Positions 27,616 through 57,043 of a DNA stretch of 64,000 nucleotides are shown piece after piece. The stretch lies in contig CBDFGH010000006.1 in the NCBI GenBank assembly GCA_965247145.1, positions 168,778-232,777 of the forward strand, read 5' to 3'. Under the pieces are notes generated by a model. It was given only the letters and a program-made list of their open reading frames with translations, had not been told where the DNA came from and did no database searches. This stretch comes from Rickettsiales bacterium (GTDB taxonomy: Bacteria; Pseudomonadota; Alphaproteobacteria; Rickettsiales; JAIXRX01). How positions within the stretch are numbered: the first letter of the stretch is position 1; each line of letters starts with the position of its first letter. A program made the translations under genes and the position numbers.

Positions 27616-27623
27616 GGAAACTC

Positions 27624-38060: not shown

Positions 38061-39310
38061 GGCCTGCCGATTTCACCTGGGCCTGGGAAGCACCACTGGC
38101 GGTGGCGGCGCAATGCACCACGCCGCAGGACAGCTTCGTGCTGCTGCACAGCGCCCGCCTTTCGCCGGATGCGCGCTATTCCTATCTGGCGCTGAACCCG
38201 CAGCGCATTTTCACCGGCAGTGGTTGGAACCTGCTGGAAGACGCTTTGACCACCCTGCCCCAAGGCGAGCGGCTTTTCGGCTATGCAAGCTATGAACTGG
38301 GTGCGGAGCATGCGCCGCAATCCAGCACCCATACGCTGCCCGAACAATGGTGGATGCTGCCCGCCACTCTGTTGCGTTTCGATCTGATCGATCAACGCAT
38401 CGAAGGATGGGGCGAAGAGCCGGTGCGGCATGCAGCGCCTATTTCCGATAATGTGCCCTGCATCGAAACACTCACCAGCAACTTCTCGGGGGACGCGTAC
38501 AGAGAGAAGGTCGCGGCGATTCTGGAAGACATTCGCGCGGGCGAATATTACCAGGCGAACCTCACACGCAAATTCCTTGGGCGCATGAGCGCGCCGCCGG
38601 ACAGCCTTACTTTGTTCGCCCGGCTCTGCACCATCAGCCCCGCCCCTTTCGCCGCGCTCATCCACACGCCGGACTGGCAGATAATTTCCTCCAGCATGGA
38701 AGAATTTCTTCATGTGGAAAACGGCCAGGCCCGCGCGCGCCCGATCAAAGGCACCTGCCCGCGCGGCGCAACACCGCAGGAAGACACGGCTTTGGCTGCC
38801 GCCCTTTCCGCCAGCACGAAAGACCGTGCGGAAAACATCATGATCGTCGATCTCATGCGTCACGACTTGTCGCAAGTCTGCACGACCGGAAGCCTGCGCG
38901 TGGAAAAACTCTGTGCGCTGGAATCCTATGCCCAGCTGCATCATCTGGTCTCGACCATTGAGGGCAGTCTGCGCGCGGATTGCGGGCCGCTGGATGCGCT
39001 GCGCGCCTGTTTCCCGCCCGGCTCGATGACTGGCGCACCGAAACGCGCCAGCGTGCGGCGGCTGGCTGAACTGGAAGCCAGCGCGCGCGGGCCTTACAGC
39101 GGCATGCTCGGCTGGATCGCGGCGGATGCGGCGCAGACTTCGGTGGTGATCCGCACGCTGATTCTCGAAGGTGCGTGCTTCGAATTCCAGGTGGGTGGCG
39201 GCATCGTGCAGGATTCCAACCCCGAACAGGAATGGCGCGAAACCTTGGTAAAAGCCCGGGGCATGGCGGAGTTGCTAAGCATTTCGCCCAATACGCTGGC
39301 AGAGCAATAA
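38057..39310 (+). CDS. pabB: aminodeoxychorismate synthase component I
   Basis: Chorismate-binding motifs (YQANLTRKF, FPPGSMTGAPK, GGGIVQDSNPEQEWRE). GTG 38057 overlaps the pabC stop (GTGA). The ORF-track start 37922 lies inside pabC. Confidence 0.85.
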   Translation: MRPADFTWAWEAPLAVAAQCTTPQDSFVLLHSARLSPDARYSYLALNPQRIFTGSGWNLLEDALTTLPQGERLFGYASYELGAEHAPQSSTHTLPEQWWMLPATLLRFDLIDQRIEGWGEEPVRHAAPISDNVPCIETLTSNFSGDAYREKVAAILEDIRAGEYYQANLTRKFLGRMSAPPDSLTLFARLCTISPAPFAALIHTPDWQIISSSMEEFLHVENGQARARPIKGTCPRGATPQEDTALAAALSASTKDRAENIMIVDLMRHDLSQVCTTGSLRVEKLCALESYAQLHHLVSTIEGSLRADCGPLDALRACFPPGSMTGAPKRASVRRLAELEASARGPYSGMLGWIAADAAQTSVVIRTLILEGACFEFQVGGGIVQDSNPEQEWRETLVKARGMAELLSISPNTLAEQ

Positions 39311-39422
39311 TCCACAAGTATGCATTGAATGCATGGCTACTAGCATAAATTGCCAGTTCCCATCGCATCATGGAATAGCTACATTCACCCCATCGAAACA
39401 ACACCGGATGGGGAGGACGACA

Positions 39423-39560
39423 ATGAAAACGCTGACGAAAATCACGATCGCGATGATGATCGCCCTCACCGCTGCCGCCTGTTCCGCTTCGCCCGAAACC
39501 AGCTACCGCAGCAATTACAGCGCGCAAGGCAGCTATTACTTCGAGCAGCTCGACAATTAA
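39423..39560 (+). CDS. small hypothetical lipoprotein (45 aa)
   Basis: GGAGG 6 nt upstream of ATG 39423. MKTLTKITIAMMIALTAAA-C lipobox. Followed by a strong terminator. Confidence 0.5.
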   Translation: MKTLTKITIAMMIALTAAACSASPETSYRSNYSAQGSYYFEQLDN

Positions 39561-41074: not shown

Positions 41075-42862
41075 ATGACGACGAGCTATCAGATCGAAGA
41101 TCATTATTACGACGTGGTCGTGGTCGGGGCCGGGGGCGCGGGTTTGCGCGCCACTTTCGGCATGGCGGAAGCAGGTTTGAGCACCGCCTGCATCACCAAG
41201 GTTTTCCCGACACGGTCGCATACCGTCGCGGCACAAGGCGGCATCTCGGCCGCGCTCGGCAATATGAGCGAAGATGACTGGCGCTGGCACTTCTACGACA
41301 CGATCAAAGGTTCGGATTGGCTGGGCGATCAAGACGCCATCGAATATATGTGCAAAAACGCCGCCGCCGCGGTGATCGAGCTCGAACATTACGGCGTGCC
41401 TTTCAGCCGCACCGAGGAGGGCCGCATCTATCAGCGCCCCTTCGGCGGCATGACCACGCAATTCGGCGAAGGCCCGCCCGCGCTGCGCACCTGTGCAGCC
41501 GCCGACCGTACCGGTCACGCCATCCTGCATACGCTCTATACCCAGGCTTTGCGCCACCGCGCGCAATTCTTCATCGAATATTTCGCGCTCGATCTCATCA
41601 TGGATGACGGCGTGTGCCGCGGCGTCATCGCCTGGAATCTGGATGACGGCACGATCCACCGCTTCCACGCGCACCAAGTGGTCATCGCCACCGGCGGTTA
41701 CGGCCGCGCCTATTTCTCCTGCACCTCCGCCCACACCTGCACGGGCGATGGCAATGCCATGGTCACCCGCGCGGGGCTACCATTGCAGGACATGGAATTC
41801 GTGCAATTCCACCCCACCGGCGTCTACGGTTCCGGCTGCCTCATCACCGAAGGCGCGCGCGGCGAAGGGGGTTACCTAGTGAACTCCGAAGGCGAGCGCT
41901 TCATGGAGCGTTACGCCCCGCACGCGAAAGATCTCGCCAGCCGCGACGTGGTTTCGCGCGCGATGACGGTGGAAATCCGCGAAGGGCGCGGGGTCGGTCC
42001 GAAGAAGGATCACATCCATCTGCACCTCAATCATCTCGACCCCGAAATCCTGCATCAGCGCCTGCCCGGCATTTCCGAAACCGCGAAGATCTTCGCGGGT
42101 GTGGACGTGACGAAAGCGCCGATTCCCGTGCTGCCCACCGTGCATTACAATATGGGCGGCATCCCCACCAATTATCACGGCGAAGTGCTCACCGTCGGGG
42201 CCGATGGCCCGGATACGGTGGTGCCCGGCCTGATGGCCATCGGCGAGGCGGCCTGCGTTTCGGTACATGGCGCGAACCGCCTGGGCTCGAACTCGCTGCT
42301 CGATCTCGTCGTCTTCGGCCGCGCCGCCGCGCACCGCGCGAAGGAACTGGTGAAGCCCGGCCAGCCGCACAAGGTGCTGAGCCAGGATCTCACCGACAAG
42401 GCCCTCGCCCGTCTGGATAAAATCCGCCACGCCAAGGGTTCCTTGCGCACCAGCGAAATCCGCCGCGCGATGCAGGATACGATGCAGACCCATGCCGCCG
42501 TCTTCCGCCAGGAAGACACGTTGGTCGAGGGTGTGAACAAAATGTCGGACATCTATCAGTCCTTCGAAGATGTGCAGATTTCCGACCGCAGCATGATCTT
42601 CAATTCCGATCTGGTCGAAGCGCTGGAACTCGACAATCTGCGCGGCCAAGCGCTGATCACCGTCGCCAGCGCGCAAAACCGCAAGGAAAGCCGCGGCGCC
42701 CACGCCCGCGAAGATTTCCAGGACCGCGACGACAAGGAATGGCTGAAACACACCGCCGCCTGGCTGGACGAGAACGGCAAAGTCGGTTTCGATTACCGCC
42801 CCGTGCATCTGAACACCATGGGCGGCGTCGAATCCGTGCCGCTGAAAAAGCGGGTTTATTGA
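41075..42862 (+). CDS. sdhA: succinate dehydrogenase flavoprotein subunit
   Basis: FAD motif [13 protein letters not shown], the covalent-FAD His region [11 protein letters not shown], and HPTG; 595 aa. Confidence 0.97.
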
Positions 42863-42896
42863 TGCTAGCCGCTTCCACGCACTTTCCCTTTTTCTC

Positions 42897-42970
42897 CGTC
42901 ATCCTGCGCGCAGTCGCAGGATCTCTGAGCGCTTCCGGCACGCGATCCTGCGACTGCGCGCAGGATGACG
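42897..42970. repeat. 74-bp palindromic element of the GTCATCC family
   Basis: Perfect 27-bp arms cgtcatcctgcgcgcagtcgcaggatc / gatcctgcgactgcgcgcaggatgacg around a 20-nt spacer. Each arm can also fold on itself. Confidence 0.9.
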
Positions 42971-42975
42971 AAAAT

Positions 42976-43818
42976 ATGATTTATCGCCTGCCCATAAAAA
43001 ACATTTTCGCCAATAATATCCTCGTCGCCCTGTCCGCCTGCCTCCTGCTCGCCGCCTGCGCCGAGCCGGTCACCCGCACGCCTGGCATCTCCAGCCAGGA
43101 AATCGCCGCCGAAGCCAAAGTGCACGAAGATGCAGTCGCCGCCGCCAAGCGTCAGTCCGGCGGCAGCAAAACCAGCATCGACCGTAGCATCGCACAAAAT
43201 GGCCTGAATGCGGTTGCCGCGAAACTCCTTCCCGCCGCCGCGGCCTATTGCCAGCAATTTGATGGCCAATCCCCCTGCCCCTACACCTACCAACTCGACA
43301 AGGACGACGCGCCGCTGAACGCCTATGCGGACGGTTCGCAGATCGTGGTGGCGCCCGCCATGATCGCCTTTACCCAAAGCCCGGATGAACTCGGCGTGGT
43401 GCTCGGCCACGAACTCGCCCACAACATCCTCAAGCACCCCGCCAAAGCCCAGCAAAACGGCATGCTGGGGGGGCTGGCCGGAACCGCACTCGGCGCGGCC
43501 GCGCAGGCCTACGGCTACAATCTCGGCGATCTCGGCGGCATGGGGCAGCAACTGGCAGTCGGCCATTACAGCCAGGATTTCGAGCGGGACGCGGATTATC
43601 TCGGCATCTACATCACCTACGCCGCCGGTTACAACGTCGATGTCGCCCCCACTTTCTGGCAGCGCATGAGTGTGGCGGACCCGGACGGCATCTACAGCGC
43701 TTCCTCCCACCCCACCAACCCCGAGCGTGCCGTGCTTCTGCGCAAGGCCATTGCCGAAATCCGCGCCAAAGTCGCCGCCGGTCAGCCGCTGGTGCCCGAA
43801 TTGCGGAAGCAGAAATGA
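42976..43818 (+). CDS. M48-family zinc metallopeptidase, lipoprotein
   Basis: Lipobox LLLAA-C, HELAHN zinc motif, downstream FERDADYLG and SSHPTNPER; 280 aa from ATG 42976. Confidence 0.85.
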   Translation: MIYRLPIKNIFANNILVALSACLLLAACAEPVTRTPGISSQEIAAEAKVHEDAVAAAKRQSGGSKTSIDRSIAQNGLNAVAAKLLPAAAAYCQQFDGQSPCPYTYQLDKDDAPLNAYADGSQIVVAPAMIAFTQSPDELGVVLGHELAHNILKHPAKAQQNGMLGGLAGTALGAAAQAYGYNLGDLGGMGQQLAVGHYSQDFERDADYLGIYITYAAGYNVDVAPTFWQRMSVADPDGIYSASSHPTNPERAVLLRKAIAEIRAKVAAGQPLVPELRKQK

Positions 43819-44774
43819 TGCGCGCGCTGAATCTGCTCCCTTTCCTCGTGCTTGCCCTGGCTGCCTGCCAGCCTTCGCCCTTCGCCACGGAACGAACCGA
43901 CCGCGCGGAGCAATCCTATGTCGAGCCGCTAATCCGGGTTACGGATGCCGAAGGCAAGGAGATGATGCGTCCCGCCAAGGCAGACGACGCCAGCCAGGGT
44001 CTCTACCGCATCCAAAACGTCCGCACCCTGACGTTCCGAACACTGAGCGAATATGGCAACGATATGAAGCGCGACGTGTATCTATTGCAGGAAAAACAGA
44101 ATTTCCTCGCTGACGACGAGCGAGATGTCGCGTTCGGCACATCGAACATTGCGGTGACATTGTACCATCAATCTTCAACCAGCGCGACAGAGAGCGAACG
44201 CGTTTGGAGCCATCATTTCGCGGCGGATCGCAGCGATCTCATCGCTAATACGGGGATGCCGCTTGAAATCTATCGCCTGACCGTTTTCGGCTGCTGCGGC
44301 ACCCACGACAATTACCGCTATCTAGACGCGATGACCGGCAGGTTGCTGGGCGGGGGAGACAGTCCCCTGACGCCGGTCGATCTGATGGAACCGTCGGGTG
44401 CGACGATCCGGCGTTACATTTCCGTGGAATCCGATTACGCTGAGATAGAATATGCCCGCCCTTCCTGCCGGGCAGCCCTGGTCAGTCTGGCCGACGAGAC
44501 ACACATCTTGGCAACCGTGGCCTTGACCGCGCCCCAGACGATTCAATGCGCGAAAGAAGCATCCAGCTTCAAGGATTTCGGCAGCCGTAAGCTGGTGCAT
44601 TCCAGTGCCAAACGCGACCGCGCGACGGTGGTTCTTCCACTGGCCGAAGGCGGGCAAGGCCCCCGTCTGCCGTTCGATGCCAAAGGATTCCTGATGGATA
44701 AAATCAAACTTCCCGCCGGCTGGAAGGCCGCCCCTGCCCGACTGGATTGGCCGGGCGAGCATGCCGCTAAATAA
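43815..44774 (+). CDS. hypothetical lipoprotein (319 aa)
   Basis: ATGA overlap with the M48 stop. Signal/lipobox MMRALNLLPFLVLALAA-C. No family recognised. Confidence 0.65.
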   Translation: MMRALNLLPFLVLALAACQPSPFATERTDRAEQSYVEPLIRVTDAEGKEMMRPAKADDASQGLYRIQNVRTLTFRTLSEYGNDMKRDVYLLQEKQNFLADDERDVAFGTSNIAVTLYHQSSTSATESERVWSHHFAADRSDLIANTGMPLEIYRLTVFGCCGTHDNYRYLDAMTGRLLGGGDSPLTPVDLMEPSGATIRRYISVESDYAEIEYARPSCRAALVSLADETHILATVALTAPQTIQCAKEASSFKDFGSRKLVHSSAKRDRATVVLPLAEGGQGPRLPFDAKGFLMDKIKLPAGWKAAPARLDWPGEHAAK

Positions 44775-44822: not shown

Positions 44823-45623
44823 ATGGTTGAGTTCTCACTGCCCGCCCGCTCCAAACCCACCAAGGGCCGTACCTATCCCGCCCCTGCAGGCGCGAAAAAT
44901 GTGAAGGTGTTCAACATCTACCGCTGGGACCCCGAGGACCGCGACGCTTCCGGCGCGCCGAAAAACCCGCGCATCGACCGTTTCGAGATCGATATGGACG
45001 ATTGCGCGCCGATGGTGCTCGATGCCTTGGGCAAAATCAAAGACGAAGTGGACAGCACGCTGGCCTACCGCCGCTCCTGCCGCGAAGGCATCTGCGGTTC
45101 CTGCTCGATGAACATCGACGGCACGAATACCTTGGCCTGCCTGAAACCGATCAGCGAAGTGAAAGGCGAGGTGGCGATCTACCCGCTGCCGCACATGCCG
45201 GTGGTGAAGGATCTCGTGCCCGACCTCACGCATGTCTATGCCCAATATGAATCGATCCAGCCCTGGCTGCAGACCCAAAGCCCGGCACCGAGCAGCCGCG
45301 AGCGTTTGCAATCTCCCGAGGATCGCGAGAAGCTGGACGGCTTGTACGAATGCATTCTCTGCTTCTGCTGCACCACCTCCTGCCCCAGCTACTGGTGGAA
45401 CGGCGATCGCTATCTCGGCCCGGCCATCCTCCTGCAAGCCTACCGCTGGATCGCCGACAGCCGCGACGAATTCACCGGCGACCGGCTGGACGCGCTCGAA
45501 GACCCCTTCAAACTCTACCGCTGCCACACCATCATGAACTGCACGAAGACCTGCCCGAAAGGTTTAAATCCCGCCAAGGCGATTCAGCAGATCAAGCAAT
45601 TGATGGTTGAGCGCGTGGTGTAA
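44823..45623 (+). CDS. sdhB: succinate dehydrogenase iron-sulfur subunit
   Basis: Cys clusters [27 protein letters not shown] and [12 protein letters not shown]; 266 aa. Confidence 0.97.
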
Positions 45624-46534: not shown

Positions 46535-47404
46535 TTAAGCCGCTTGCTTCTTCAGCACCCCGACCAATTTCTCCGTCGCCAGCTTCGTATCCAGCTTTTC
46601 AGCCGCGGCGAGTTCGCCGACCATGCGGTTGAAGGCGGATTCGAAGATGATGCGTTCGCTGTAGGAGCGTTCGGATTGATCGACGTTTTTGTAGAGATCG
46701 CGCACCACTTCGGCCACGCTGAGCAGGCAGCCGCTGTTGATCTTCGCTTCATACTCTTGAGCACGGCGGCTCCACATACCCCGGCCGGCTTTGGCTTTGC
46801 CTTTCAGGGTCTTCAGAGCTTTTTCGATCTTTTCCGAACCGCTGATGCAGCGCAGACCGGCGGCTTCGGCGCGGTGCACGGGCACGCGCAGGGTCATTTT
46901 ATCGCGTTCGAAGTTGATCACGAACACTTTCAGCGACACTTCGCCGAAGGTCTGAGTCTCTTCGCCGATGATGTTGCCGACGCCGTGGGTGGGATAGACC
47001 ACGAAGCTGCCGACCTTGAAATCGCCCTTCGCGGCGGCAGGGGCTTTGACGATGGCGATGGGGGCAGTCACGACTTGCTTCGACATAATGGTTTTCGTTT
47101 CCATGATTTTGGTGGGAATGACGGTCTTGGCGATGGCCCTGGCAGGCGCTGCTTTGGCTGCAACCGCCTTCGGTACGGCCTTGATAACCGCTTTGGGCGC
47201 AGTTTTCATCGGGGCGGATTTGGCAGGAAGCGCTTTCTGGGCAGCTTTGCCTTTTACAGAAACCGGCTTCGTTTTGGCCGCAGGTTGTTTGGAAACGGCT
47301 GTTTTCGAAGATTTCGATTTGGCAGCAACCGGCTTGATTGGGGATGCCTTGATTGCGGATGCCTTGGTTGCGGGGGAAACGGACAATTTTTTAGCAGTCG
47401 CCAT
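46535..47404 (-). CDS. carD: CarD/CdnL-family transcription factor with ~125-aa Lys/Ala/Pro-rich N-terminal extension
   Basis: Residues ~128-289 carry FKVGSFVVYPTHGVGNI...MTLRVPV...MWSRRAQEYEAKINSG...VVRDL (CarD_TRCF-like). Residues 1-125 are KAxP-type low complexity. Internal Mets at 101/107 would give a standard-length protein. Confidence 0.8.
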   Translation of the reverse strand: MATAKKLSVSPATKASAIKASPIKPVAAKSKSSKTAVSKQPAAKTKPVSVKGKAAQKALPAKSAPMKTAPKAVIKAVPKAVAAKAAPARAIAKTVIPTKIMETKTIMSKQVVTAPIAIVKAPAAAKGDFKVGSFVVYPTHGVGNIIGEETQTFGEVSLKVFVINFERDKMTLRVPVHRAEAAGLRCISGSEKIEKALKTLKGKAKAGRGMWSRRAQEYEAKINSGCLLSVAEVVRDLYKNVDQSERSYSERIIFESAFNRMVGELAAAEKLDTKLATEKLVGVLKKQAA

Positions 47405-47746
47405 AAGACCGACTATCCTTCACGTTGCGCCGCGGCAAAACCCAGCGGCAGGATGAACACAGATGCGGCCTGATCCGTAAGGAAAAGGCCCGGCTTTGGT
47501 CAAAACACCCGATAAGTCGGGCGTCCCCTCTTCGAACGTTGCGTGCAGTGGATAAGGGTCGGATCCTGGTGTCCGGCGGCGGCTGGCCAAAAGGCGGACG
47601 CTTGCTCGAATCCCTTACTGCGATGTGAAGACACCATACCACGATTAACGATACCTTAATAGCATTTTAAGCGCTTTTGCATCAAATGTAATATAAATGC
47701 CACAAATAATAATGAATCGATGGATCAAAAGGGTAGCGAGAAAGCG

Positions 47747-47905
47747 CTAGGCTTGGCGCATCCACCATTCATTGACTGAGCGTTTTTCGCCGCAGGGACT
47801 GCCTGCCGCGCCCACACATGGGCTCTTCAACTCATGGGTTTCCTTTTCGCAGGCGGTCAGGCCAGCGGTCAGGATCAGAGTAAAAAGTGCGATGCGTACA
47901 ATCAT
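47747..47905 (-). CDS. 52-aa lipoprotein downstream of the virB6 paralogs (VirB7-like candidate)
   Basis: Not in the ORF track (<60 aa). Hand translation MIVRIALFTLILTAGLTA-CEKETHELKSPCVGAAGSPCGEKRSVNEWWMRQA* with lipobox LTAC. Lies 72 nt downstream of the last virB6 paralog on the same strand. Confidence 0.55.
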   Translation of the reverse strand: MIVRIALFTLILTAGLTACEKETHELKSPCVGAAGSPCGEKRSVNEWWMRQA

Positions 47906-47977
47906 ACCCACGACATTACCAAATCACGCCGCCAGTGCAATGGCATTTCTTTTCAGACCCGGCACAGGCGGAGCGCA

Positions 47978-49648
47978 TCATTCGGAAATCTTGGGACCGT
48001 TCTCCGAGATACCTTGCTGCACATTCGAAACGACACCGCCGATTTTATCATTGAGTATGTCGTTCGGGGATTCGCCGGGCGTGCTGCGCACTTCTCCGGC
48101 GGCGCTTTTCAATGTTTCCATCATCGATTCGCCTTGTTTGGCGCCTTCCCCCATGGCTCCCGTGGCCATCTTCATCATGGCGCTGCCCGCGCCGCTGACG
48201 CTGCCTGCGGCACGCTGTGCCATACCCATCGGGTCGATGCCGTTGCGCTGGGCCATGGCGGCAAGTTCCTGGCCGGAAGTGGTGATGCTGACATTCCCAC
48301 CCGAAAGTTCGCTGGCGATCTGCTGGACATAACTGCTGTAGCGCCAGGACAGCGAGGAAAGCAGCACGAACATAAGCACGTCCACCATGTGAATCTGCAT
48401 GTTCGCCTTCTGCCAAAGGTCGGTGGCGATGGGAATGGGACTGTTGCCGCCACGGTTGCTGACATAGCCGAGCACGTCGTTTGCCGTAGCGTGATGAGCA
48501 AATGAATCCGAAACCGGAAAGAACCACCAAATCTGCGCGATTTCCATATCCCAAAACGGTCCATAGCACACATTGATTTCAAGAATTGGTTTGAGCACAC
48601 CCGCAATCATCGTCATGAAGAATCCGAGGAAGGCGAAGACGAAGACGGGTTGAAGGGCGAAGCTGAGGCAAAGGTTGAACCAGCCGTCGAACAATCGCCG
48701 GGTCTGGTCGAACAACAGACAGACGATGAAGATCGGGGAAATGGCGAAGAGCACGAATAGACCGATCAGGGCCTTGACGTAGGTAGCCAGCGCCCCGAGC
48801 GCCGCCAGCAGGAAAAAGAAGGTGCCCTGAATCAGGAAGAGCATCAGCACGAATCCGCTCAAACCCGCGAACATCATGCTGAGAATGACCATGATAAAGC
48901 GGATATCCATGACCATCTGCAACGGCACGATGAGAAAGTTCAGCGGGGCGTTGGTGAGCATGGTGTTTGGCAGCTGGTGCAGCCCCACATTCAAACCTCT
49001 CGGCAATGCATTCAGACTACCGACGGTGGCGGTGTAATAGGCGGTAATCAATTCGTTCATGCCGCCGATGAAGAAGCTCTGGATGATGATGCTCACCCCG
49101 CCCCCCACGATCAGGTAATACATGATCGCGATCTTCAATATACGGATGAAGGCTTCGTACCATGTGATGTCGACCAGATTGAACAGCACCATGATGCCGA
49201 ATACGACGAGATACAGCATCACCGTCGCATTCATCGCAGCAACAAAACCGGTATCGTGGGTCAGGGTTCGGAAGAGGTCTTTCCACCGCGGGCTGGAAGC
49301 GCTGGAACCGATGAACATGGTATTGATCTTGTCAAACACCGCGTCGAGCGTCGCGGCGACTTGCATGAGATTGCGCGAACCTTCGGGCGGGCCGGAGACG
49401 TCTGTCATCGAAACATATTGCGCGCATTCCGGCGGTGGGCTCGCGCCAACGCATTCTGGGTGAAAATCTCTTGACTGCAATGTCGTTGCAGGAGCCGCTT
49501 TTCCAAACGAACAAAACGGACCCAACCGATCGGTGGCGGAAACCTGGGCATGCGCCGTGTGCGGCGCAATCGCCACCAACCACATCAGAAGGACATACAG
49601 GCAAATAGGTGAATATCTGCGGAAGGGATAAGAGAGCATAAGCATCAT
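47978..49648 (-). CDS. virB6: VirB6/TrbL-family T4SS inner-membrane protein, paralog 3
   Basis: 556 aa with signal peptide ...APHTAHA and a polytopic core bearing FDQTRRLFDGWFNLCLSFALQP, shared with the two upstream paralogs. Hydrophilic Gly/Met-rich tail. ATGA overlap with the upstream stop. Confidence 0.8.
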   Translation of the reverse strand: MMLMLSYPFRRYSPICLYVLLMWLVAIAPHTAHAQVSATDRLGPFCSFGKAAPATTLQSRDFHPECVGASPPPECAQYVSMTDVSGPPEGSRNLMQVAATLDAVFDKINTMFIGSSASSPRWKDLFRTLTHDTGFVAAMNATVMLYLVVFGIMVLFNLVDITWYEAFIRILKIAIMYYLIVGGGVSIIIQSFFIGGMNELITAYYTATVGSLNALPRGLNVGLHQLPNTMLTNAPLNFLIVPLQMVMDIRFIMVILSMMFAGLSGFVLMLFLIQGTFFFLLAALGALATYVKALIGLFVLFAISPIFIVCLLFDQTRRLFDGWFNLCLSFALQPVFVFAFLGFFMTMIAGVLKPILEINVCYGPFWDMEIAQIWWFFPVSDSFAHHATANDVLGYVSNRGGNSPIPIATDLWQKANMQIHMVDVLMFVLLSSLSWRYSSYVQQIASELSGGNVSITTSGQELAAMAQRNGIDPMGMAQRAAGSVSGAGSAMMKMATGAMGEGAKQGESMMETLKSAAGEVRSTPGESPNDILNDKIGGVVSNVQQGISENGPKISE

Positions 49649-51714
49649 TTTTTAACTTCCGGTTTGGCGGCGCTTTGAATGCGGCTGAGAATGGCGCCGA
49701 GATCGGTATTTTCCACAATGGCTTCCCGCCCGCTGGCCACCAGGGCTCCGCCCCCACGTCGCACGAAATTGCTGACATTGTCGACGGGATTGAAAGTGGA
49801 GCCGCCGCGCTTTTCCGCGCGTGTCCAGCGCGCTTCGGTACTACCGAGAAAGCTTTCGATACGGTCCGCGAACGGCACCCCGCTGTCGCCGCTCACCGGC
49901 GCGCTGCGCCCGCCGCGCGAAAGCAGGCTTGCCATGCCGCCGGTAATGGCAATGCCGCCACTGCCGACAATGGAACGCGCGATCTGCGGCACGGCCTGAT
50001 TGAGCGAGACGAAAAGAAATATCATCAGAAAGGCGCTGAATACCGAGCCACTGAGCTTCATCAGAAACCATTCCTGAAAATTGGCGTCCACCCTTCCAGG
50101 AATCAACGTAATGTAATGCGGATTCGGCCCACCGCTGGCGACCCATTTATGCGTCTGCGGATCGAAGGCGCCGCCCACCATGCCCGTAGCACGAAACGCC
50201 TGCAATATCTGCGGGGTCAACCCGTCGTTTGCCGGAGTGGCGGGAATCTCGCCCTGTACCTTTCTAAGGAACCGATCGTAGGTGCCGTTGATGCGCAGAT
50301 CGATGATCGGCATCCAGATCGGATCGAGCGAGACACTGCTCAAGCTTTGCAACGAGCGGATCATCGTGCCGACATCGCTGCTGGCGGTGAAGGCATCCAA
50401 ATATTTTTTGGCCGTTGCGAGTCCGCCCGCCACATCCCGTGTTATTTGTTTGCCTACGATATCTGCGATATTGGATAGCTCTCTCGAGCTCAAAATATCG
50501 AATAACACCACGCCCTCGTCTCGTACCATGTTGCGCAACACGATGCGGCGCATTTCCGATTGGACTTTCAAATCAGCATTCCTGATGCGATCAAAGCCCA
50601 GCACCTCGTAGATGCTGTAGACGACCCCAGCATTCCTTGTCCAATTGCTCGGTGGAGATCCTGTGCTGCCGGCGATGAAGTAGCTCGCGCCGAAAATACT
50701 CACCGACATGAAAATGACGAGAATAAACGGCTGAAAGATGATGCCGATATAGATGAACAGCCATTTGGTGAAATAGCTCATGGTGCGCCGGAACATGAGC
50801 GTGGGTATGACCAGCGGCACGAAAATGAGAATGACCGCGATCGCCAGATAGGCATGCATGATGTAGAAAATACAGCGCATGACATAAAGTATGATGGTAA
50901 ACATCAGCATGATCGTGCCGAAGAGAATGGCGATGCCCAGCGGCCCGCTCATCGCCGTGGCCATGATGAGCGACACGATGCCCGTCCAGAACGCCACACC
51001 CGCCACCATGCCGAACAGCATGCCGAGAATGCAATCCAGCGCGTTCCATAAGCGCACTTCCTGCTTGACGTCCTGCATGGTAACCGATGTTTGCCCGTTG
51101 GGGCTTGTGGTGGTGATAGGGATATGCAGCTCGATGCTACTGCGGTTGAGCCCACCAGCAGGCCCGGGTAGAGTGGGATCAAGTGAATTGTTGCAGCGTA
51201 TGAACAATTGCGCGGTGCCTTCCTGCGCCATATTGCCAAACAGGGTCGCGCCCCAATCCATCAACTCGTCCTGCACCGCCACGGCAATGCGCCCGATATT
51301 GAGGCTGCTCGCCCCGGTGGAAAGGCTCGTCAGCATCACCATCACGAAAGCGGCTTTGATCAACAGCAGCAACCCCTCGCCCTTCGGCGAGCGCACGCCG
51401 CCCATAGTCATCCGCACCCCGAACAACACGATGGAGAGAAAAATCACCGCGCCACCGATGGGCAGCATGAAGCGTGCGATGGGTGCCACCACGGTGGCTG
51501 CCGCCGTATAGGTCATCACCCGCATACAAGCCACCGCACGTGCACTGAGCGTGCCGGCCAGCTCGGGCACTCTCATGCATTCGGACTGCGAAATGTCTGC
51601 CAGATCGATAACGTAGCCGAGTGGGTCTAAGGCCAAAGCGGGGGTTGCCACACCGATCATGCCGCAGCAGAAAACCGCGATCATGAGGAAAAAGAGGATG
51701 CGGGGCTGCTGCAT
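49645..51714 (-). CDS. virB6: VirB6/TrbL-family T4SS inner-membrane protein, paralog 2
   Basis: 689 aa with signal peptide ...GVATPALA and core motif FRRTMSYFTKWLFIYIGIIFQP, plus a large hydrophilic C-terminal region. Starts 2 nt after the upstream stop. Confidence 0.8.
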   Translation of the reverse strand: MQQPRILFFLMIAVFCCGMIGVATPALALDPLGYVIDLADISQSECMRVPELAGTLSARAVACMRVMTYTAAATVVAPIARFMLPIGGAVIFLSIVLFGVRMTMGGVRSPKGEGLLLLIKAAFVMVMLTSLSTGASSLNIGRIAVAVQDELMDWGATLFGNMAQEGTAQLFIRCNNSLDPTLPGPAGGLNRSSIELHIPITTTSPNGQTSVTMQDVKQEVRLWNALDCILGMLFGMVAGVAFWTGIVSLIMATAMSGPLGIAILFGTIMLMFTIILYVMRCIFYIMHAYLAIAVILIFVPLVIPTLMFRRTMSYFTKWLFIYIGIIFQPFILVIFMSVSIFGASYFIAGSTGSPPSNWTRNAGVVYSIYEVLGFDRIRNADLKVQSEMRRIVLRNMVRDEGVVLFDILSSRELSNIADIVGKQITRDVAGGLATAKKYLDAFTASSDVGTMIRSLQSLSSVSLDPIWMPIIDLRINGTYDRFLRKVQGEIPATPANDGLTPQILQAFRATGMVGGAFDPQTHKWVASGGPNPHYITLIPGRVDANFQEWFLMKLSGSVFSAFLMIFLFVSLNQAVPQIARSIVGSGGIAITGGMASLLSRGGRSAPVSGDSGVPFADRIESFLGSTEARWTRAEKRGGSTFNPVDNVSNFVRRGGGALVASGREAIVENTDLGAILSRIQSAAKPEVKK

Positions 51715-51716
51715 AC

Positions 51717-53432
51717 CTACCCCTTCCCGCCGAATTTGCTGAAAACATCGGCCAATCCCTGCTGGGCTTGCCCCATCGAACCTTCCGAGCCGCGTAGGCC
51801 ACCCTCGATGCCGCGATTCAGGCTGCTGACCCCGGAAAGTGCGGTTTTCCCAAGATCACCGCCCATGCGATTGACCTTGTTGATGTCCCCGCTATCCACC
51901 GCTGCTGCCGCCAGCAGGTTCACGAATTCCGGCAGCTGACGTAGAAAATGATAGAGTACGAAGAGGATGATGAAGGCGGTGAACATCGCCAGAAAGGGCC
52001 TTGCCATGGCCTGCGCGGTCCGCACGTCGTAGGATTGGGTGGAAATGCTCGGCCAACTGTAGCCGTTGTTTTTCTGAATCAGCGCCTGGCTTGCACTACG
52101 GAACTGGGTTAGCAGGTAATCCAACACCTCGCCGGAAATAGGCAGGCTCTTGAGTTCAGATTCGGTCGAGGCACTGGCAAGGGTGGTGAGTTCGACGATG
52201 AAACGGTTGATCGAACGCTCCCCGATGCGGTTGAACGCCTTCTGGATTTGCGGCACCGTGCATTCGGACTCGCCATAGGCCTTGACGTTGGTATGCGACA
52301 ATTCATTGGCCGCTTGGTTCAACGCCGCCACTACCGAATATTTCTTCAGGCAGACCACATTTTCGAACACGGTGACGAACATCATCAAAAACAGGCACAG
52401 TAATATGGGCTGCATGGTGAAACCCACCAACATGCCGAACCAGCGCGTGAAATAATCACGGGTTTTCTGAAAGAAAATGCATGCCCAGGCCAGCGGTGCG
52501 ATCATCATCAACAGTATGATCGATATATGTGCGAGGATCATGATGCTGATCGAAATCTCCATCACCACGCCCAACGCATAGATCATGCCCCCGAATGCCG
52601 CAGCCGCGCCTTTGGCCAGATAACCGGAGAAGGCGTTTTTCATCATGACCCCGATCGGGGAGTTCGCGGAATTCTGTCCGACTTCGATGATGGATTGGGC
52701 GGCGCAATCGAGCTTGGCCCAGGGCACCAGGAAAATGTAATTGGGCCCGATGCTGGCCCCGGTGTAGGCGCTGCACAGAGAGCTGGGAATTTTCAGCGCG
52801 ATGGTGCCCGACCAATTGTTCAGCGTTTCGATCAGCGACTCGTAAAGCATGGGTATGGCCGCCACTGCCGCCAGCAAAATACCGATCTTCATGAAAATGA
52901 CGAAGATGCCGGAGAGAAATTCATTATGCCTTCCCAGCGCTACTTTCACACCCAGCATCACCAGCGCCAATAAAGAAACGGCGAGGATGATGTCGGTGAA
53001 AAGATTCGAGGTGGCGGTAATGGCAATCCGGCCGAAATAAATGATGGCCCCCGGCATATTGGCTGCGCCGTCGCCCGGCTGAGTTCCCAATAGACAACCG
53101 ACGATGCGCAGGGTGAGATAGAAATTTTCGCGGCCTGTTCCTGTGCCGTTGCCGGGTACATTCTGCCATTGGGCATGATTGACCGTTCTGAATTTTTTGA
53201 TGCCTTCGCTTTCGCCGCAGAAACGCGTTGATCCTATGCCCGACCACATGTTCGACAGACTGGTGAAGCTGGCATTCGGCCGCTGCTGTGCTTCCACCGA
53301 GAGCTTGTTGGGGAAAAAAGCGGAGGAAAGGATGAAGCAGAGAAACGTTCCGAAAAGAACGGCAAGGATGTGCCGCACCACCAACGGCCGTGCCGATCGC
53401 GCCAAACCGGCCGAAACGCTTCCCGCGCTCAT
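51717..53432 (-). CDS. virB6: VirB6/TrbL-family T4SS inner-membrane protein, paralog 1
   Basis: Core motif FQKTRDYFTRWFGMLVGFTMQP. ATG 53432 forms an ATGA overlap with the virB4 stop; the ORF-track start 53468 would overlap virB4 by 40 nt. Confidence 0.8.
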   Translation of the reverse strand: MSAGSVSAGLARSARPLVVRHILAVLFGTFLCFILSSAFFPNKLSVEAQQRPNASFTSLSNMWSGIGSTRFCGESEGIKKFRTVNHAQWQNVPGNGTGTGRENFYLTLRIVGCLLGTQPGDGAANMPGAIIYFGRIAITATSNLFTDIILAVSLLALVMLGVKVALGRHNEFLSGIFVIFMKIGILLAAVAAIPMLYESLIETLNNWSGTIALKIPSSLCSAYTGASIGPNYIFLVPWAKLDCAAQSIIEVGQNSANSPIGVMMKNAFSGYLAKGAAAAFGGMIYALGVVMEISISIMILAHISIILLMMIAPLAWACIFFQKTRDYFTRWFGMLVGFTMQPILLCLFLMMFVTVFENVVCLKKYSVVAALNQAANELSHTNVKAYGESECTVPQIQKAFNRIGERSINRFIVELTTLASASTESELKSLPISGEVLDYLLTQFRSASQALIQKNNGYSWPSISTQSYDVRTAQAMARPFLAMFTAFIILFVLYHFLRQLPEFVNLLAAAAVDSGDINKVNRMGGDLGKTALSGVSSLNRGIEGGLRGSEGSMGQAQQGLADVFSKFGGKG

Positions 53433-55828
53433 AGACGCCGCGCGCGTTCGAAGAAGACGGGCAGCCACTGGTCGGGATCGTCGCCCACTTTGGCGCGGAT
53501 GTCGTCGAGCAGGCGCACGGTATCGGCGCGCGCGGAAAGCACATTCACCGCATCCGTCATCCCGCTTAAGTCGATGCGGGCCACCACCATGTCTTTGTTC
53601 TGCTTCACCAGGAAGAAGCGGGAGCCGGGGTCGGTGCTTTTGATCAGGTTGAATTCCCGTTCGCTCAGCATGAAGGCGCTTCGATACACGCTGGTGGCTT
53701 TCGGGTTGGGCAGAAAAATCTGCGTGGCGGTCTGCTGGATCAGCGTGTCCGAGATCGCGCTGCTCGCCGCATCTTCGACCGATTGGGTGGCGAAGATCAC
53801 GAAAGCGTTCAGTTTCCGCAAGGTTTTCAGCCAGTCCTTGATCTTGCTCGCGAAGACAGAGTTATCGATCAGCGCCCAGGCTTCGTCCAGCACCAGCATG
53901 GTGGGCGTGCCGTCGAGCGAGAGGTTAATCTTGTGGAAGAGATACAGCAGCACCGGCGCCAGCGTGACTTTGTTGGAAAGCACCGGGCCCATTTCGAAAC
54001 CGAAATTGGCATGGGTGCTGAAATCCAGCGAGTCGAAGGGATTGTCAAACAATTTGGCGTATTGCCCGTCCGAATGCCACATGCGCAGGCGGCCCGCCAG
54101 CGAGCCCGGCCCCTCTAAGCCCAGGAAGGGCGCGATGTTGCGCAGCATGCGGTCTTTGCGGGCGAGCTTGAAATTGCCGTTCACCGCTTCGGTGATGAGC
54201 GCCATGTCTTCCGCCGTCAGCGGCTCGCCATACACCGTCACCAGCGTGCGCATCCATTCGCTGATGAAATTGCGATTCTCGTTGGTATCCGGCAGTTGCA
54301 GCGGGTTGAAGTTGCAGCGCTCGCCGGGTTCGATGATGTTGTAGGAGCCGTGGATGGCGCGGATGAAGATTTCGGCGCCGCGATCTTTGTCGAAGAAGAA
54401 CAGGCGGCAATTGAATTTCTGCGCCTGCGCGCAGAGGAAGTTCATCAGCACCGTTTTGCCCGCACCCGTGGGCCCGATGATGGTGGTGTGGCCCACGTCG
54501 CGTGCGTGGAAATTGAAATAATAGGGCGTGCCGGAAGTCGTATCCAGCACGCTCACCGCATCCCCCCAATGGTTGCCCGCAATGCGACCGGTGGGGTAAT
54601 TGTGCAGGCTCGCCATGCCCGCCACATTCAGGCTGTGGATTTTGGATTTGCGCGCCACATAGTCGAAATTCGCCGGCAGCTGCGACCAGAAGGCCTGCTC
54701 CAAGATCATCTTCTCCCGCGTCGGGTTGAAGCCGATATTGACCATTTCGGCCACTGCCATCGAAAGCGAGGATTCCATCGATTTTAGATCGTCTTCGATC
54801 ACCATCACCGTCATCTGGTGCTGCCCGAAGGCGACCGCCCCACCGGTGGCGAGATCGAGCGCATCCGAGATTTCGATGACCTGGCTGATCGCTTTATCCT
54901 GGCTCGCCATCTTGCGGCGCTGCTCGGTCTGCATGCTCTGGATCGAGGTGGCGCGGTTGATGAAGATGTAGGAATGGGTCACGATGAGTTCGCAGGGCAA
55001 TTGCAGAAACCCGTCCAGCATCCCGGCGGCGGTGGCGCTGGGATATTCCCGCACCGAAAGCATCGCGCCGTAGCGCGTTTTGTTCAGGCCGCGAAATTCG
55101 ATGGCACGGCTGCCGAAATAGATGCGCTGATAGGGCAGATAATGCGAGATGTCGGTCATCGGCACATGCATCTGCTTGCCGTCGCCGCCATTGATGAGCT
55201 TGCTCAGAAATTCCAATGGCTCGGAAACGGGGCCGTTTTCGGTGTCGATCGTGGTCAGCAATTCCGGGCTGTAATCGCGCAGGCTGGCCATCACGCGGTT
55301 CACCGCATCCGCCAGATCCTTGAAGGATTCCTGCATGCCCATGGCACGCTGCTGCTCGTTCACCCCGGCTGCGAGTTTGTTGAAATAATATTCCAGCTTG
55401 GCGAAACCGGCCTTGTCCGCCTTGCGCACCACGGTGATGTAGAGTTCGTTGATGAAGGCCTGTTTCGCGGTGCGCTTGGCCTTCCATTGCTCGTTGAGCA
55501 TATTGGCGAAACCGCGGCGGAATTTGCCCTTGGGGAAGCCCGGCTTGCGGCGGCGGATGGTGTGGAACCACAATGCGAAGTCGCCGTCCGACATGCTTTT
55601 CAGCAGCGAATTGCGCACCAGTTTCTTCATGTCCACGTCTTCGTCGTCCGCCGTTTCGAAAGCGAAACCGCTGACGCGGATGGTCTGCATCATCTCCCCG
55701 TTCTTGGTGATGATGGTCTCGCGGTCCCAATGATAATGGTAGGGAATGAACTCGGCGGCGGCCACCTCATGGGCGCTCTGCCACGATTGTGCCGTCTTGC
55801 GGATGGAGAATTGCTTGTAACTGCGCAT
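53429..55828 (-). CDS. virB4: type IV secretion system ATPase VirB4
   Basis: 799 aa with N-terminal FIPYHYHWDRETIITKNGEMMQTIRVSGFAFE, Walker A IIGPTGAGKT and Walker B MLVLDEAW. Confidence 0.93.
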   Translation of the reverse strand: MRSYKQFSIRKTAQSWQSAHEVAAAEFIPYHYHWDRETIITKNGEMMQTIRVSGFAFETADDEDVDMKKLVRNSLLKSMSDGDFALWFHTIRRRKPGFPKGKFRRGFANMLNEQWKAKRTAKQAFINELYITVVRKADKAGFAKLEYYFNKLAAGVNEQQRAMGMQESFKDLADAVNRVMASLRDYSPELLTTIDTENGPVSEPLEFLSKLINGGDGKQMHVPMTDISHYLPYQRIYFGSRAIEFRGLNKTRYGAMLSVREYPSATAAGMLDGFLQLPCELIVTHSYIFINRATSIQSMQTEQRRKMASQDKAISQVIEISDALDLATGGAVAFGQHQMTVMVIEDDLKSMESSLSMAVAEMVNIGFNPTREKMILEQAFWSQLPANFDYVARKSKIHSLNVAGMASLHNYPTGRIAGNHWGDAVSVLDTTSGTPYYFNFHARDVGHTTIIGPTGAGKTVLMNFLCAQAQKFNCRLFFFDKDRGAEIFIRAIHGSYNIIEPGERCNFNPLQLPDTNENRNFISEWMRTLVTVYGEPLTAEDMALITEAVNGNFKLARKDRMLRNIAPFLGLEGPGSLAGRLRMWHSDGQYAKLFDNPFDSLDFSTHANFGFEMGPVLSNKVTLAPVLLYLFHKINLSLDGTPTMLVLDEAWALIDNSVFASKIKDWLKTLRKLNAFVIFATQSVEDAASSAISDTLIQQTATQIFLPNPKATSVYRSAFMLSEREFNLIKSTDPGSRFFLVKQNKDMVVARIDLSGMTDAVNVLSARADTVRLLDDIRAKVGDDPDQWLPVFFERARRL

Positions 55829-55874: not shown

Positions 55875-56171
55875 CTAGAACAGATCGTAGGAATTCGTGC
55901 CGCCATGATAGCGGCGATTGACGCAACGCATGCCCTTGCTCATTCGCAGCATGACCAGTTCCAGCGCGCGCGGTTCTTTGCGACATACGAGAAAAGCGAA
56001 AGCGTGCAGGATGGGGAATACGACGCCGAGATAAATGAAATTCTTGGTATTGATGAAGGTCAACAGACAGATCATGCTGTTGAAGATGAAGAACATGTAG
56101 CTGACGCCACCAACCATGGTCGGACGGGTGAGGCCTTGAAAGAGCGGATCGACTTGCAAACGACCGGACAT
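55875..56171 (-). CDS. virB3: type IV secretion system protein VirB3
   Basis: 98 aa with DPLFQGLTRPTMVGGVSY followed by a hydrophobic hairpin. Immediately upstream of virB4. Confidence 0.88.
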   Translation of the reverse strand: MSGRLQVDPLFQGLTRPTMVGGVSYMFFIFNSMICLLTFINTKNFIYLGVVFPILHAFAFLVCRKEPRALELVMLRMSKGMRCVNRRYHGGTNSYDLF

Positions 56172-56180
56172 GATATTTCC

Positions 56181-56435
56181 TTACAGTTTCTGACTTTGAT
56201 GATCGGGCGCGGAAAGGCGCTTCGCATCGTGCCGCGTAGCAAAAAAACCAATCATATGCCCGATGGGGAAAAGGACGGACAGAAAGATAAAATTTCTAAA
56301 GAACAAGAATAGGGCTAGGCACAACAGCGAATTGATTAAAAAATAACGGTAACGCACACCGCCGACAAGCACCGGCCCAAGCACTGATTCATTGCCTGAT
56401 GCGCGCTTTGCTGTTTCGATTTTACCACCAGCCAT
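56181..56435 (-). CDS. VirB3-like paralog (84 aa)
   Basis: Ungapped hand alignment to the adjacent VirB3 core gives 24 identities over 55 residues (P.VGGV.Y..F..NS..C....F....NFI.L.V.FPI.H...F...R). Lies 9 nt upstream of virB3. Confidence 0.7.
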   Translation of the reverse strand: MAGGKIETAKRASGNESVLGPVLVGGVRYRYFLINSLLCLALFLFFRNFIFLSVLFPIGHMIGFFATRHDAKRLSAPDHQSQKL

Positions 56436-56916
56436 TGTCGTCCTTCTTGTCGGATTTCACCACTGTGCCATCCTTATTATAGAAGTTATTAATAAATTGT
56501 TGCGTCATGGCGGCGGCTTGCTGTGCTTGGGCAAGCTTCAGTGCGGCGGCTGCAGGCGTCCCATTGGCACCATTCAGCATTTTCCGCACTTCTTCGCGTT
56601 TCTTTTCCCGCTGTTTGATTGTTTTGTTGGCTTTGTCGATGGTGGCTTTGGTCTGAGAGGAAATCATCGCCTGCACCAGCTTCTTGGCTTTGCCCTGCAT
56701 GACGGGTTCGCCCGATTCGTCCACCACGTCAAGGCGCTTGGAAAGCATCTTCGCCTGAATCTCCGCCGTTTTGCGCGCGGTCATCAGCGTGTAGCGGTCG
56801 TCGGCGTTCATCTTCAGCAGCTTTTGTTTGTCGGCCGCGCTGCCGCCGGAATTTTTGTTCAGAATGCTGCCGCCGCCGCTTTTTCCGCCACTGCCGCCAC
56901 CCATCGAATACCGCAT
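56422..56916 (-). CDS. hypothetical Gly-rich / Lys-rich coiled-coil protein, first gene of the T4SS operon (orf164)
   Basis: Start chosen at ATG 56916 (AGGAG 6 nt upstream); the ORF-track start 57045 collides with the divergent gene. GGGSGGKSGGGS N-terminus, K/Q/A-rich middle, C-terminus ...KKDDNGWW*. Overlaps the virB3-like ORF by 14 nt. Confidence 0.55.
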   Translation of the reverse strand: MRYSMGGGSGGKSGGGSILNKNSGGSAADKQKLLKMNADDRYTLMTARKTAEIQAKMLSKRLDVVDESGEPVMQGKAKKLVQAMISSQTKATIDKANKTIKQREKKREEVRKMLNGANGTPAAAALKLAQAQQAAAMTQQFINNFYNKDGTVVKSDKKDDNGWW

Positions 56917-57043
56917 ATGCATCTCCTGCTTGGCCGTTGCCCGCCGCCGTTTTGCCAAGACAAAGCGGGCCGTTTCCATTAGTTTCATTCTACTGCAAAC
57001 CATGCCGAACCGCGTATGAAGGTTTTGTGACAGGAGCTGTGCC

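Follow-up and report, generated by a model that had tools for sequence, protein, structure and literature searches.

The subject of this analysis is a short open reading frame (ORF) on the minus strand of contig CBDFGH010000006.1 of a Rickettsiales bacterium (GCA_965247145.1), of which we analysed a stretch of 64,000 nucleotides (here called the window). The ORF stands last in an operon of type IV secretion system (T4SS) genes in which a virB3-like gene, virB3, virB4 and three virB6 paralogues precede it in that order, and its ATG lies 72 nt downstream of the stop codon of virB6 paralogue 3 (Table 1). The product of the ATG form, MIVRIALFTLILTAGLTACEKETHELKSPCVGAAGSPCGEKRSVNEWWMRQA, is a putative lipoprotein of 52 amino acids (aa) that we regard as a probable VirB7-type subunit. 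A sequence-only reading of the window had pointed out this ORF at 47747-47905 and its spacing from virB6, a textbook lipoprotein signal, two further cysteines in the mature peptide, its omission from the annotation and the antisense position of the plus-strand ORFs listed there; each of these points held when examined.

A GTG at 47911 offers an alternative start, with which the ORF would span 47747..47911 and encode 54 aa; the ATG at 47905 is the likelier start, since the M-K-T-R-I-A of the orthologues aligns with M-I-V-R-I-A in the window. Under a PROSITE PS51257-type rule (charged n-region, uncharged h-region, [LIVMFWSTAG]2-[LIVMFYSTAGCQ]-[AGS]-C and a Cys within residues 15-35), the product qualifies as a lipoprotein, having R4, the uncharged IALFTLILTA and G-L-T-A-C19. 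The predicted cleavage site splits the precursor into MIVRIALFTLILTAGLTA and CEKETHELKSPCVGAAGSPCGEKRSVNEWWMRQA. Among orthologues the signal peptide diverges in sequence, its character and lipobox being kept; the two Cys of the mature peptide besides C19 are C30 and C38.

The 52-codon ORF is a real gene under purifying selection. The ratio of nonsynonymous to synonymous differences (pN/pS) in its frame was 0.09-0.12 against the two closest orthologues (L001 and L002) and 0.09-0.29 across all four pairs, compared with 0.34 up to infinity in the five other frames, and the corresponding ratio of substitution rates (dN/dS) against L001 was 0.07 in the mature part (dS 0.93) and 0.51 in the signal peptide. 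The plus-strand ORFs that begin at 47772 and 47834 failed the substitution test and were rejected as genes. An ORF that arose by chance in the untranslated region at the 3′ end of the virB6 operon could also be short, preceded by a weak Shine-Dalgarno (SD)-like sequence and not called by the source annotation, as this one is; this explanation is refuted by the frame-specific purifying selection, and by the 22 syntenic loci and hundreds of homologues described below. Neither start variant of the protein is present in a collection of 15 billion proteins, in which the adjacent VirB6 of this contig does occur (P0002, 100 % identity), so the small gene went unannotated at source. An Rfam scan gave no match near the locus, and a search for a terminator-like site in the spacer between virB6 and the ATG found none.

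Table 1. Coordinates of the small ORF, its parts and its neighbours (window numbering, except where a locus is named)
Feature	Position	Strand	Remarks
Small lipoprotein gene, 52 codons + TAG	47747..47905	minus	ATG 47905; stop TAG 47747-47749; proposed VirB7/RvhB7-type subunit
Signal peptide, residues 1-18, MIVRIALFTLILTAGLTA	47852..47905	minus	direct reading
Lipobox L-T-A-C	47849-47860	minus	Cys = residue 19
Mature lipopeptide, residues 19-52, CEKETHELKSPCVGAAGSPCGEKRSVNEWWMRQA	47750..47851	minus	34 aa counting the lipid Cys
K-S-P-C motif, residues 27-30	47816..47827	minus	'[KI]KSP + second Cys' signature, RvhB7/ComB7 type
Second S-P-C motif, residues 36-38	47792..47800	minus	third Cys 7 residues past the second
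S-V-N-E-W-W, residues 43-48	47762..47779	minus	variant of P-[VI]-N-[DE]-W-W; proposed VirB9-binding segment
Spacer, virB6 paralogue 3 stop to ATG	47906..47977	minus	72 nt; only a weak SD-like GTGGG
Weak hairpin over the stop codon, then CCCTTTTGAT	47734..47749	minus	possible operon end
virB6 paralogue 3	47978..49648	minus	Pfam TrbL E 1.5e-14; homologues P0002-P0006
virB6 paralogue 2, divergent	49645..51714	minus	Pfam TrbL E 1.8e-4, below cutoff; conserved in L002-L005
virB6 paralogue 1	51717..53468	minus	Pfam TrbL E 3.4e-14
virB4	53429..55828	minus	Pfam CagE_TrbE_VirB E 1.1e-47
virB3	55875..56171	minus	Pfam VirB3 E 4.3e-24
Second, divergent virB3-like gene	56181..56435	minus	Pfam VirB3 E 1.4e-6
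carD, next gene downstream, outside the T4SS operon	46535..47404	minus	Pfam CarD_C + CarD_TRCF_RID; same neighbour in L001-L005
AT-rich subclade lipoprotein + partner pair	L009 5771-6364; L029 9001-9552; L031 9001-9611		

A family of small lipoproteins with a common signature

A search of 5.8 billion proteins returned one close homologue of the window protein (P0001, 51 aa, 71 % identity), on a contig where the neighbours are those of the window, with VirB6 upstream and CarD downstream. A hidden Markov model made from the two-sequence profile and run exhaustively against 1.84 billion representatives retrieved 99 proteins at E<=1e-3, nearly all of them lipoproteins of 45-65 aa, and a profile of 90 members extended the family to at least 680 clusters in an indexed search; E-values of the homologues go down to 1e-19. 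Where these proteins carry a name at all it is only 'hypothetical protein' or 'lipoprotein', from metagenome-assembled genomes (MAGs) of Rickettsiales, Alphaproteobacteria and Pseudomonadota. The cluster records of ten members all read 'hypothetical protein [Rickettsiales bacterium]', and no Pfam domain is assigned in the cluster records of the family. A tblastn search of plasmids with the family consensus gave no match. On sequence grounds, the window ORF belongs to a large, tightly conserved family hitherto without a name.

The signature of the family is C-x10-11-[LIV]KSPC-x7-SPC-x3-4-P[VI]N[DE]WW, in which the first C is the lipid Cys. C19, P29, C30, P37 and C38 are invariant in 90-99 members, and S28 and N45 are nearly so. 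Spacings were counted in the 210 members that fit the pattern: the second Cys stands 10-11 residues after the lipid Cys in 184, the third exactly 7 residues after the second in 198, and the P position lies 23-25 residues from the lipid Cys in 177. The residue preceding [VI]N is P in 143 of the 210 and S, the second commonest, in 30, so that the S-V-N of the window reads as a frequent alternative to P-V-N; within the close clade, K-R-P-V-N is present in four of five distinct orthologues. After the N comes mostly D/E-W, and in closer relatives D/E-W-W. An AT-rich subclade carries I-K-S-P-C, and the window itself reads L-K-S-P-C30, which puts '[KI]KSP' beside the second Cys, with the strict reservation that L rather than K or I precedes KSP.

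Comparison with curated models and with individual VirB7 proteins suggested the nature of the family. The NCBIfam model LvhB7 (NF041529) was the top NCBIfam match of the window protein (E 5e-4) and matched 52/90 members (best 1.3e-7), while Pfam DUF2706 (PF10913), which we take to be the family of Rickettsia RP288, matched 25/90 at E<0.01 (best 1.8e-5). When mature peptides alone were submitted, LvhB7 (4/10) and DUF2706 (6/10) were the recurrent top matches (best E 0.0046). The annotated VirB7 of Campylobacter jejuni pVir (WP_002815096.1, MKILKISILTITIIFFSACATTNKEIPKKSPCACNYDVIKIS) has C-x10-KSPC, in ...PKKSPCAC..., and its hhalign comparison with the family returned a probability of 93.6 %; once the signal peptides had been cut off, the lipid Cys and KSPC remained aligned, and 2 of 200 shuffles reached the score. 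Among solved structures, the best match of the family profile was TrwH, the VirB7 of R388 (7O3J, E 0.046), with 'krpvN' aligned on REPVNK. An LptM-like lipoprotein was considered and rejected, as only 5/90 members match LptM and the family does not carry what we take to be the LptM motif.

Position after virB6 and assignment to VirB7

Starting from homologues of VirB6 paralogue 3 (P0003-P0006, 39-60 % identity), we reached five further loci (L002-L006), which share the order pdxJ, acpS, two DUF192 genes, a conserved gene, virB3-like, virB4, three virB6 and CarD. A small lipoprotein ORF lies between the last virB6 and carD throughout these loci, and in two it had escaped the gene callers. A scan of genome contigs with this VirB6 alone found no relative, and the species of the window is apparently absent from the GTDB representatives. 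When GTDB species genomes were scanned with a VirB6 alignment, 18 loci came out, 13 of which have rvh-like VirB6 arrays. The family ORF directly follows the last virB6 in nine of the 13 arrays (L011-14, L016, L017, L019, L022, L023) and is absent near the VirB6 arrays of L015, L018, L020, L021 (Wolbachia) and L026. The nearest titled genomes are Rickettsiales and unclassified alphaproteobacterial MAGs, at only 24-29 % VirB6 identity.

Because a sample drawn with VirB6 is biased towards virB6, we took a second sample from the small protein outwards (five look-ups and a metagenome scan). With L001 counted in, this yielded about 17 informative loci, in eight of which the ORF lies directly after the last virB6 (L001, L007, L030, L035, L045, L047, L050, L052). 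In all, and with the window included, 22 loci have the ORF immediately behind the final virB6 copy of a virB3-virB4-virB6x3-4 operon (the 21 others are L001-L005, L007, L011-14, L016, L017, L019, L022, L023, L030, L035, L045, L047, L050 and L052), with VirB6 identities among them from 60 % down to about 21-29 %, and none of the examined loci has a family ORF elsewhere inside the T4SS operon.

The ORF probably encodes the VirB7-type lipoprotein of a chromosomal, rvh-like P-type T4SS, which would be clamped on VirB9. It agrees with a broad description of VirB7 (a lipoprotein of 40-60 aa, encoded in a virB operon after virB6) in its 52 aa and in lying 72 nt after the last virB6, and the family is linked to RvhB7, LvhB7 and ComB7 by the '[KI]KSP'-Cys motif, the LvhB7 and DUF2706 matches and the virB6-virB7 gene order. 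We compared the operon with three rvh hallmarks, namely multicopy virB6 after virB3-virB4, no virB5 and the division of the genes into islets, and found three virB6, no virB5 in the operon and virB8-D4 outside the window. A further hallmark is the duplication of virB4, virB8 and virB9 (PMC11077975). The sequence-only reading had proposed a VirB7 analogue from position and size, with S-V-N-E as a motif variant, and had suggested looking for homologous small ORFs in related T4SS loci; the residue counts given above bear out the variant, the 21 further loci have such an ORF at the same position, and the place of the gene at the end of virB3-virB3′-virB4-virB6x3, together with the motif and the LvhB7 matches, supports the analogy.

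Several observations weigh against the VirB7 assignment. No virB8-virB11 or virD4 was found in the window, and the gene does not have the position of that for RvhB7, which lies immediately upstream of virB8b, between the virB8/virB9 duplicates (PMC2653234). In terms of motif, S-V-N-E stands at +24 from the lipid Cys as against about 16 for P-[ILV]-N-K, S replaces P in the window and the K of P[ILV]NK is D/E in the family. The likeness to TrwH is one of motif only, as it was not significant on mature peptides (25/200 shuffles reach the score). The SD-like sequence of the small ORF is weak, and the hairpin over its stop codon is no better than shuffle expectation and is weak as a terminator-like element; hairpins, each of another sequence, lie 3′ of the ORF stop in L001, L007 and L019. 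The window protein also falls short of curated cutoffs, with 19.7 bits against the 70-bit equivalog cutoff of LvhB7, which means that it is no LvhB7 equivalog, and 12.3 bits (E 0.15) against the gathering cutoff of 25 of DUF2706, and it has no match to Pfam TraN (PF20898, P_T4SS_TraN) at E<=10. These missed cutoffs weigh little, since recognised VirB7 proteins fail in the same way: TrwH scored 18.1 bits against a cutoff of 27, and pVir VirB7 matches no VirB7 model in Pfam or NCBIfam.

The remaining adverse evidence comes from loci of the second sample, at least nine of which (about half) have no T4SS gene within 6-9 kb, and it would fit a different function, in which the protein is a small lipopeptide of the outer membrane or periplasm that serves the envelope in general, independently of the T4SS, and ends the virB6 operon in some lineages only. 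The unlinked AT-rich subclade always lies between tyrA and ctpA-surA (L009, L029, L031), the latter being genes of envelope-protein quality control, and is paired there with a conserved partner of 121-135 aa, cytoplasmic-looking and without a Pfam match; the unlinked short-type subclade lies beside htpG and unrelated genes (L038, L040, L041, L043, L044, L051). Such an envelope role appears improbable to us as the explanation of the family. Wherever a T4SS is nearby the ORF occurs only directly after the last virB6, and it does so at 22 loci in very divergent lineages; short-type members without WW also stand in the T4SS position (L016, L050, L052); and the motif matches those of RvhB7 and ComB7. 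The named members come from Rickettsiales, Alphaproteobacteria or Pseudomonadota, and Rickettsiales are known to scatter their rvh genes into islets, which would explain family copies unlinked to T4SS genes.

As a separate observation, the short-type members that end in ...SPCERRAVNNDHA and have no WW (L038, L040, L041-L044, L051) are on metagenome contigs with a GC content of 0.42-0.45, and no VirB homologue was found within 6 kb of these loci.

The protein might instead be a T4SS accessory lipoprotein that does not bind VirB9, either a VirB6-associated factor or an exclusion/immunity lipoprotein of the EexN/TrbK kind; in favour of this, the gene keeps company with virB6 copies and not with virB8 and virB9. 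Small lipoproteins other than VirB7 do exist in T4SS operons: R388 has one of the EexN family beside its virB6, and in L024, L027 and L028 small lipoprotein ORFs precede virB6. The window protein has a weak match to NCBIfam EexN (E 0.087), confined to the signal peptide, but at 12.8 bits against a cutoff of 33 and in a chromosomal operon we rejected its identification as an EexN/TrbK entry-exclusion protein. We hold an accessory role of any kind to be quite improbable, given that exclusion and immunity proteins are variable and system-specific while this family has five invariant residues, fixed spacing and hundreds of clusters, that the operon is chromosomal, lies between housekeeping genes with synteny conserved across lineages and is part of no conjugative element, and that the motif signature is the one published for RvhB7/ComB7. 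No other VirB7 candidate was found in the operon or elsewhere in the window.

If the protein is a VirB7, the 18-residue signal peptide would take the precursor through Sec, Cys19 would be diacylglycerol-modified with cleavage between L-T-A and C, and the resulting 34-residue lipopeptide would be anchored in the inner leaflet of the outer membrane. Its extended chain would then wrap the C-terminal beta-sandwich of VirB9, with (P/S)-V-N-E-W-W in the pocket used by the P-[ILV]-N-K of TraN/TrwH, and the VirB7-VirB9-VirB10 outer-membrane core complex would be stabilised by this contact. The outer-membrane location, the binding to VirB9, the function of the motif and the pattern of disulfides are inferences. 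An AlphaFold2 (AF2) model built with 99 homologues (pLDDT, the predicted local distance difference test score, 78) shows the signal peptide as a helix (residues 2-16) and the mature chain as extended, apart from a short helix over residues 46-50; such a monomer is compatible with a VirB7 that folds only on VirB9, without being diagnostic of one.

C30 and C38 might form an intramolecular disulfide loop of 9 residues or, as in Agrobacterium tumefaciens, a disulfide to VirB9 or to another VirB7. A C30-C38 loop would cut the 24-residue path from the lipid Cys to the motif to 16, being 11 (C19-C30) plus 5 (C38-43), although this is arithmetic only. In TrwH the distance from C17 to P33 is 16 residues, and a Cys-to-motif distance of about 16 is also cited from the TraN-TraO structure (PMC2653234). 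It is tempting, if rather unlikely as a whole, to see in the hybrid signature the first sequence-level bridge from the KSPC-type proteins (ComB7, LvhB7, RvhB7) to those of the PVNK type (TraN, TrwH), with the 16-residue spacing restored by the C30-C38 loop and possibly with a second, T4SS-independent role in the envelope.

The operon and the rest of the window

The window is chromosomal, with about 58 % G+C and with nuo, sdh, relA/spoT, pdxJ and acpS aboard. Rickettsiales from environmental sources that carry an rvh T4SS and whose genomes are larger and richer in GC have been described (PMC9352585). The plasmids with the closest VirB4 carry avhB-like conjugative systems at about 41 % identity; the best of them (from Sphingomonas) has a gap at the place of virB5-virB7, in which no lipoprotein ORF was found.

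The T4SS operon opens with tandem VirB3-like genes, and VirB3 duplication is not among the rvh hallmarks of PMC11077975. Directly upstream of these genes, at 56422-57045 on the minus strand, lies a hydrophilic, coiled-coil-like protein of up to 207 aa that ends in ...NGWW and belongs to no Pfam family. L002, L004 and L005 have homologues at this location (E 7e-68 to 1e-26), that of L004 being a 165-aa gene directly before virB3, and a small gene precedes virB3 at the same place in L002 and L005/L006. This protein could be an unrecognised component or substrate of the T4SS. At the other end of the virB6 array, the true start of virB6 paralogue 3 is uncertain because its database version (P0002) has 476 aa and the longest ORF 556 aa; the longest ORF overlaps the end of virB6 paralogue 2 by 4 nt.

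Downstream of the small ORF, a promoter-like site lies ahead of carD (47664-47692), and a conserved non-coding block (..GCATTTGAT..CTTAAAATGCTATTAAG..) between the two genes, found at 47640-47700 in the window, at about 1850-1900 in L001 and also in L002 and L004, overlaps this site (47692-47664). The block is probably the carD promoter, and the 5′ leader of carD, of about 250 nt, is partly conserved too. The CarD protein encoded at 46535-47404 is extended at its N-terminus by about 125 Ala-, Lys- and Pro-rich residues that precede CarD_TRCF_RID, which is unusually long for CarD/CdnL.

A run of minus-strand genes at 21-31 kb was considered as virB8-D4 and rejected, these genes being nuo. Three ORFs without a Pfam family are interspersed in this nuo operon on the minus strand (30193-30921, 29425-30006 and 26743-27828), between nuoC, nuoD and nuoF. 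Some of these might be spurious, of the long kind that GC-rich DNA produces, or might be the small uncharacterised genes known from alphaproteobacterial nuo clusters. The adjacency of sdhA (41075-42862) and sdhB (44823-45623), intact in L004, is broken in the window, where an M48 peptidase gene (42739-43818, plus strand) and a 319-aa ORF (43815-44774, plus strand) lie between them. Another putative small lipoprotein ORF, unrelated to the VirB7-like family, is present at 39279-39557 on the plus strand (..MKTLTKITIAMMIALTAAACSASPETSYRSNYSAQGSYYFEQLDN), and its look-alike in L004 is a called gene of 59 aa without a Pfam match (17502-17681, minus strand).

Comparison with known VirB7 proteins

What is new here is an uncalled gene and the signature of its family; the kind of subunit, a VirB7 of the RvhB7/LvhB7/ComB7 type, was already known, and the finding is a correction to annotation that adds no new biology and leaves the known working of T4SSs unchanged. 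VirB7 is the component most often absent from T4SS annotations, and in rvh systems it is still debated: in a 2025 cryo-electron tomography study of Wolbachia wMel, VirB7 was not identified and was omitted from the model of the outer-membrane complex (10.1101/2025.08.29.673095). Since many rvh-like operons have the ORF behind their last virB6, the signature is usable for practical annotation of this subunit in Rickettsiales-like and alphaproteobacterial environmental genomes, and it provides a testable target for modelling of the VirB7-VirB9 interface. Omission of VirB7 extends to well-studied systems, as the ORF of TrwH in R388 (L034, 7269-7412), in a 253-nt gap between VirB6 and VirB8, is absent from the gene table, which illustrates how routinely VirB7 genes escape annotation.

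The closest published parallel is Rickettsia RP288 (R. typhi YP_067241), proposed as VirB7 by Gillespie et al. in 2009 because it has a Cys for lipo-processing, another conserved Cys with '[KI]KSP' at its flank, as in ComB7 of Helicobacter pylori and C. jejuni, and a possible P[ILV]NK motif farther from the lipid Cys than usual (PMC2653234). Judged by its residues and their spacing, the family fits this description point for point. RvhB7, likened here through that published description, and the window protein are alike in being small lipoproteins that belong to a T4SS in which virB6 is multicopy and virB5 is lacking, and both have '[KI]KSP' by the second Cys and a distant P[ILV]N(K)-like motif. 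The two differ in setting: the window gene, unlike that for RvhB7, follows virB6 paralogue 3 and is followed by carD, and its host, unlike Rickettsia, is GC-rich (~58 %), with the operon placed among housekeeping genes. In the ancestral, canonical P-type order virB7 follows virB6, and the operon appears to have split after virB7 in the lineage of the window and before virB7 in Rickettsia, which makes the family a marker of the break-up of the ancestral virB operon.

The LvhB7 model, 45 positions long, aligns with the window protein from the signal peptide through KSPC, and in the best match of a mature peptide alone it reaches position 41. ComB7 and pVir VirB7 share with the window protein a lipobox Cys, an interval of about 10-12 residues, K-S-P-C and a gene inside a T4SS operon. 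ComB7, in contrast, ends soon past KSPC(AC), without the second SPC and the PVN-WW tail of the family, and belongs to a competence/conjugation system in which its gene lies between virB4 and virB8.

Finally, the classical VirB7 proteins (TrwH of R388, TraN of pKM101 and VirB7 of Ti) resemble the window protein in size, lipid anchor, position after virB6 and P-V-N motif; they have no KSPC or SPC motifs, and their PVN-K stands at +16, compared with (P/S)VN-[DE]-WW at +24 in the family. By analogy with them, the window protein would be expected to do the job of a classical VirB7, clamping VirB9 at its C-terminal domain within the core complex of the outer membrane.

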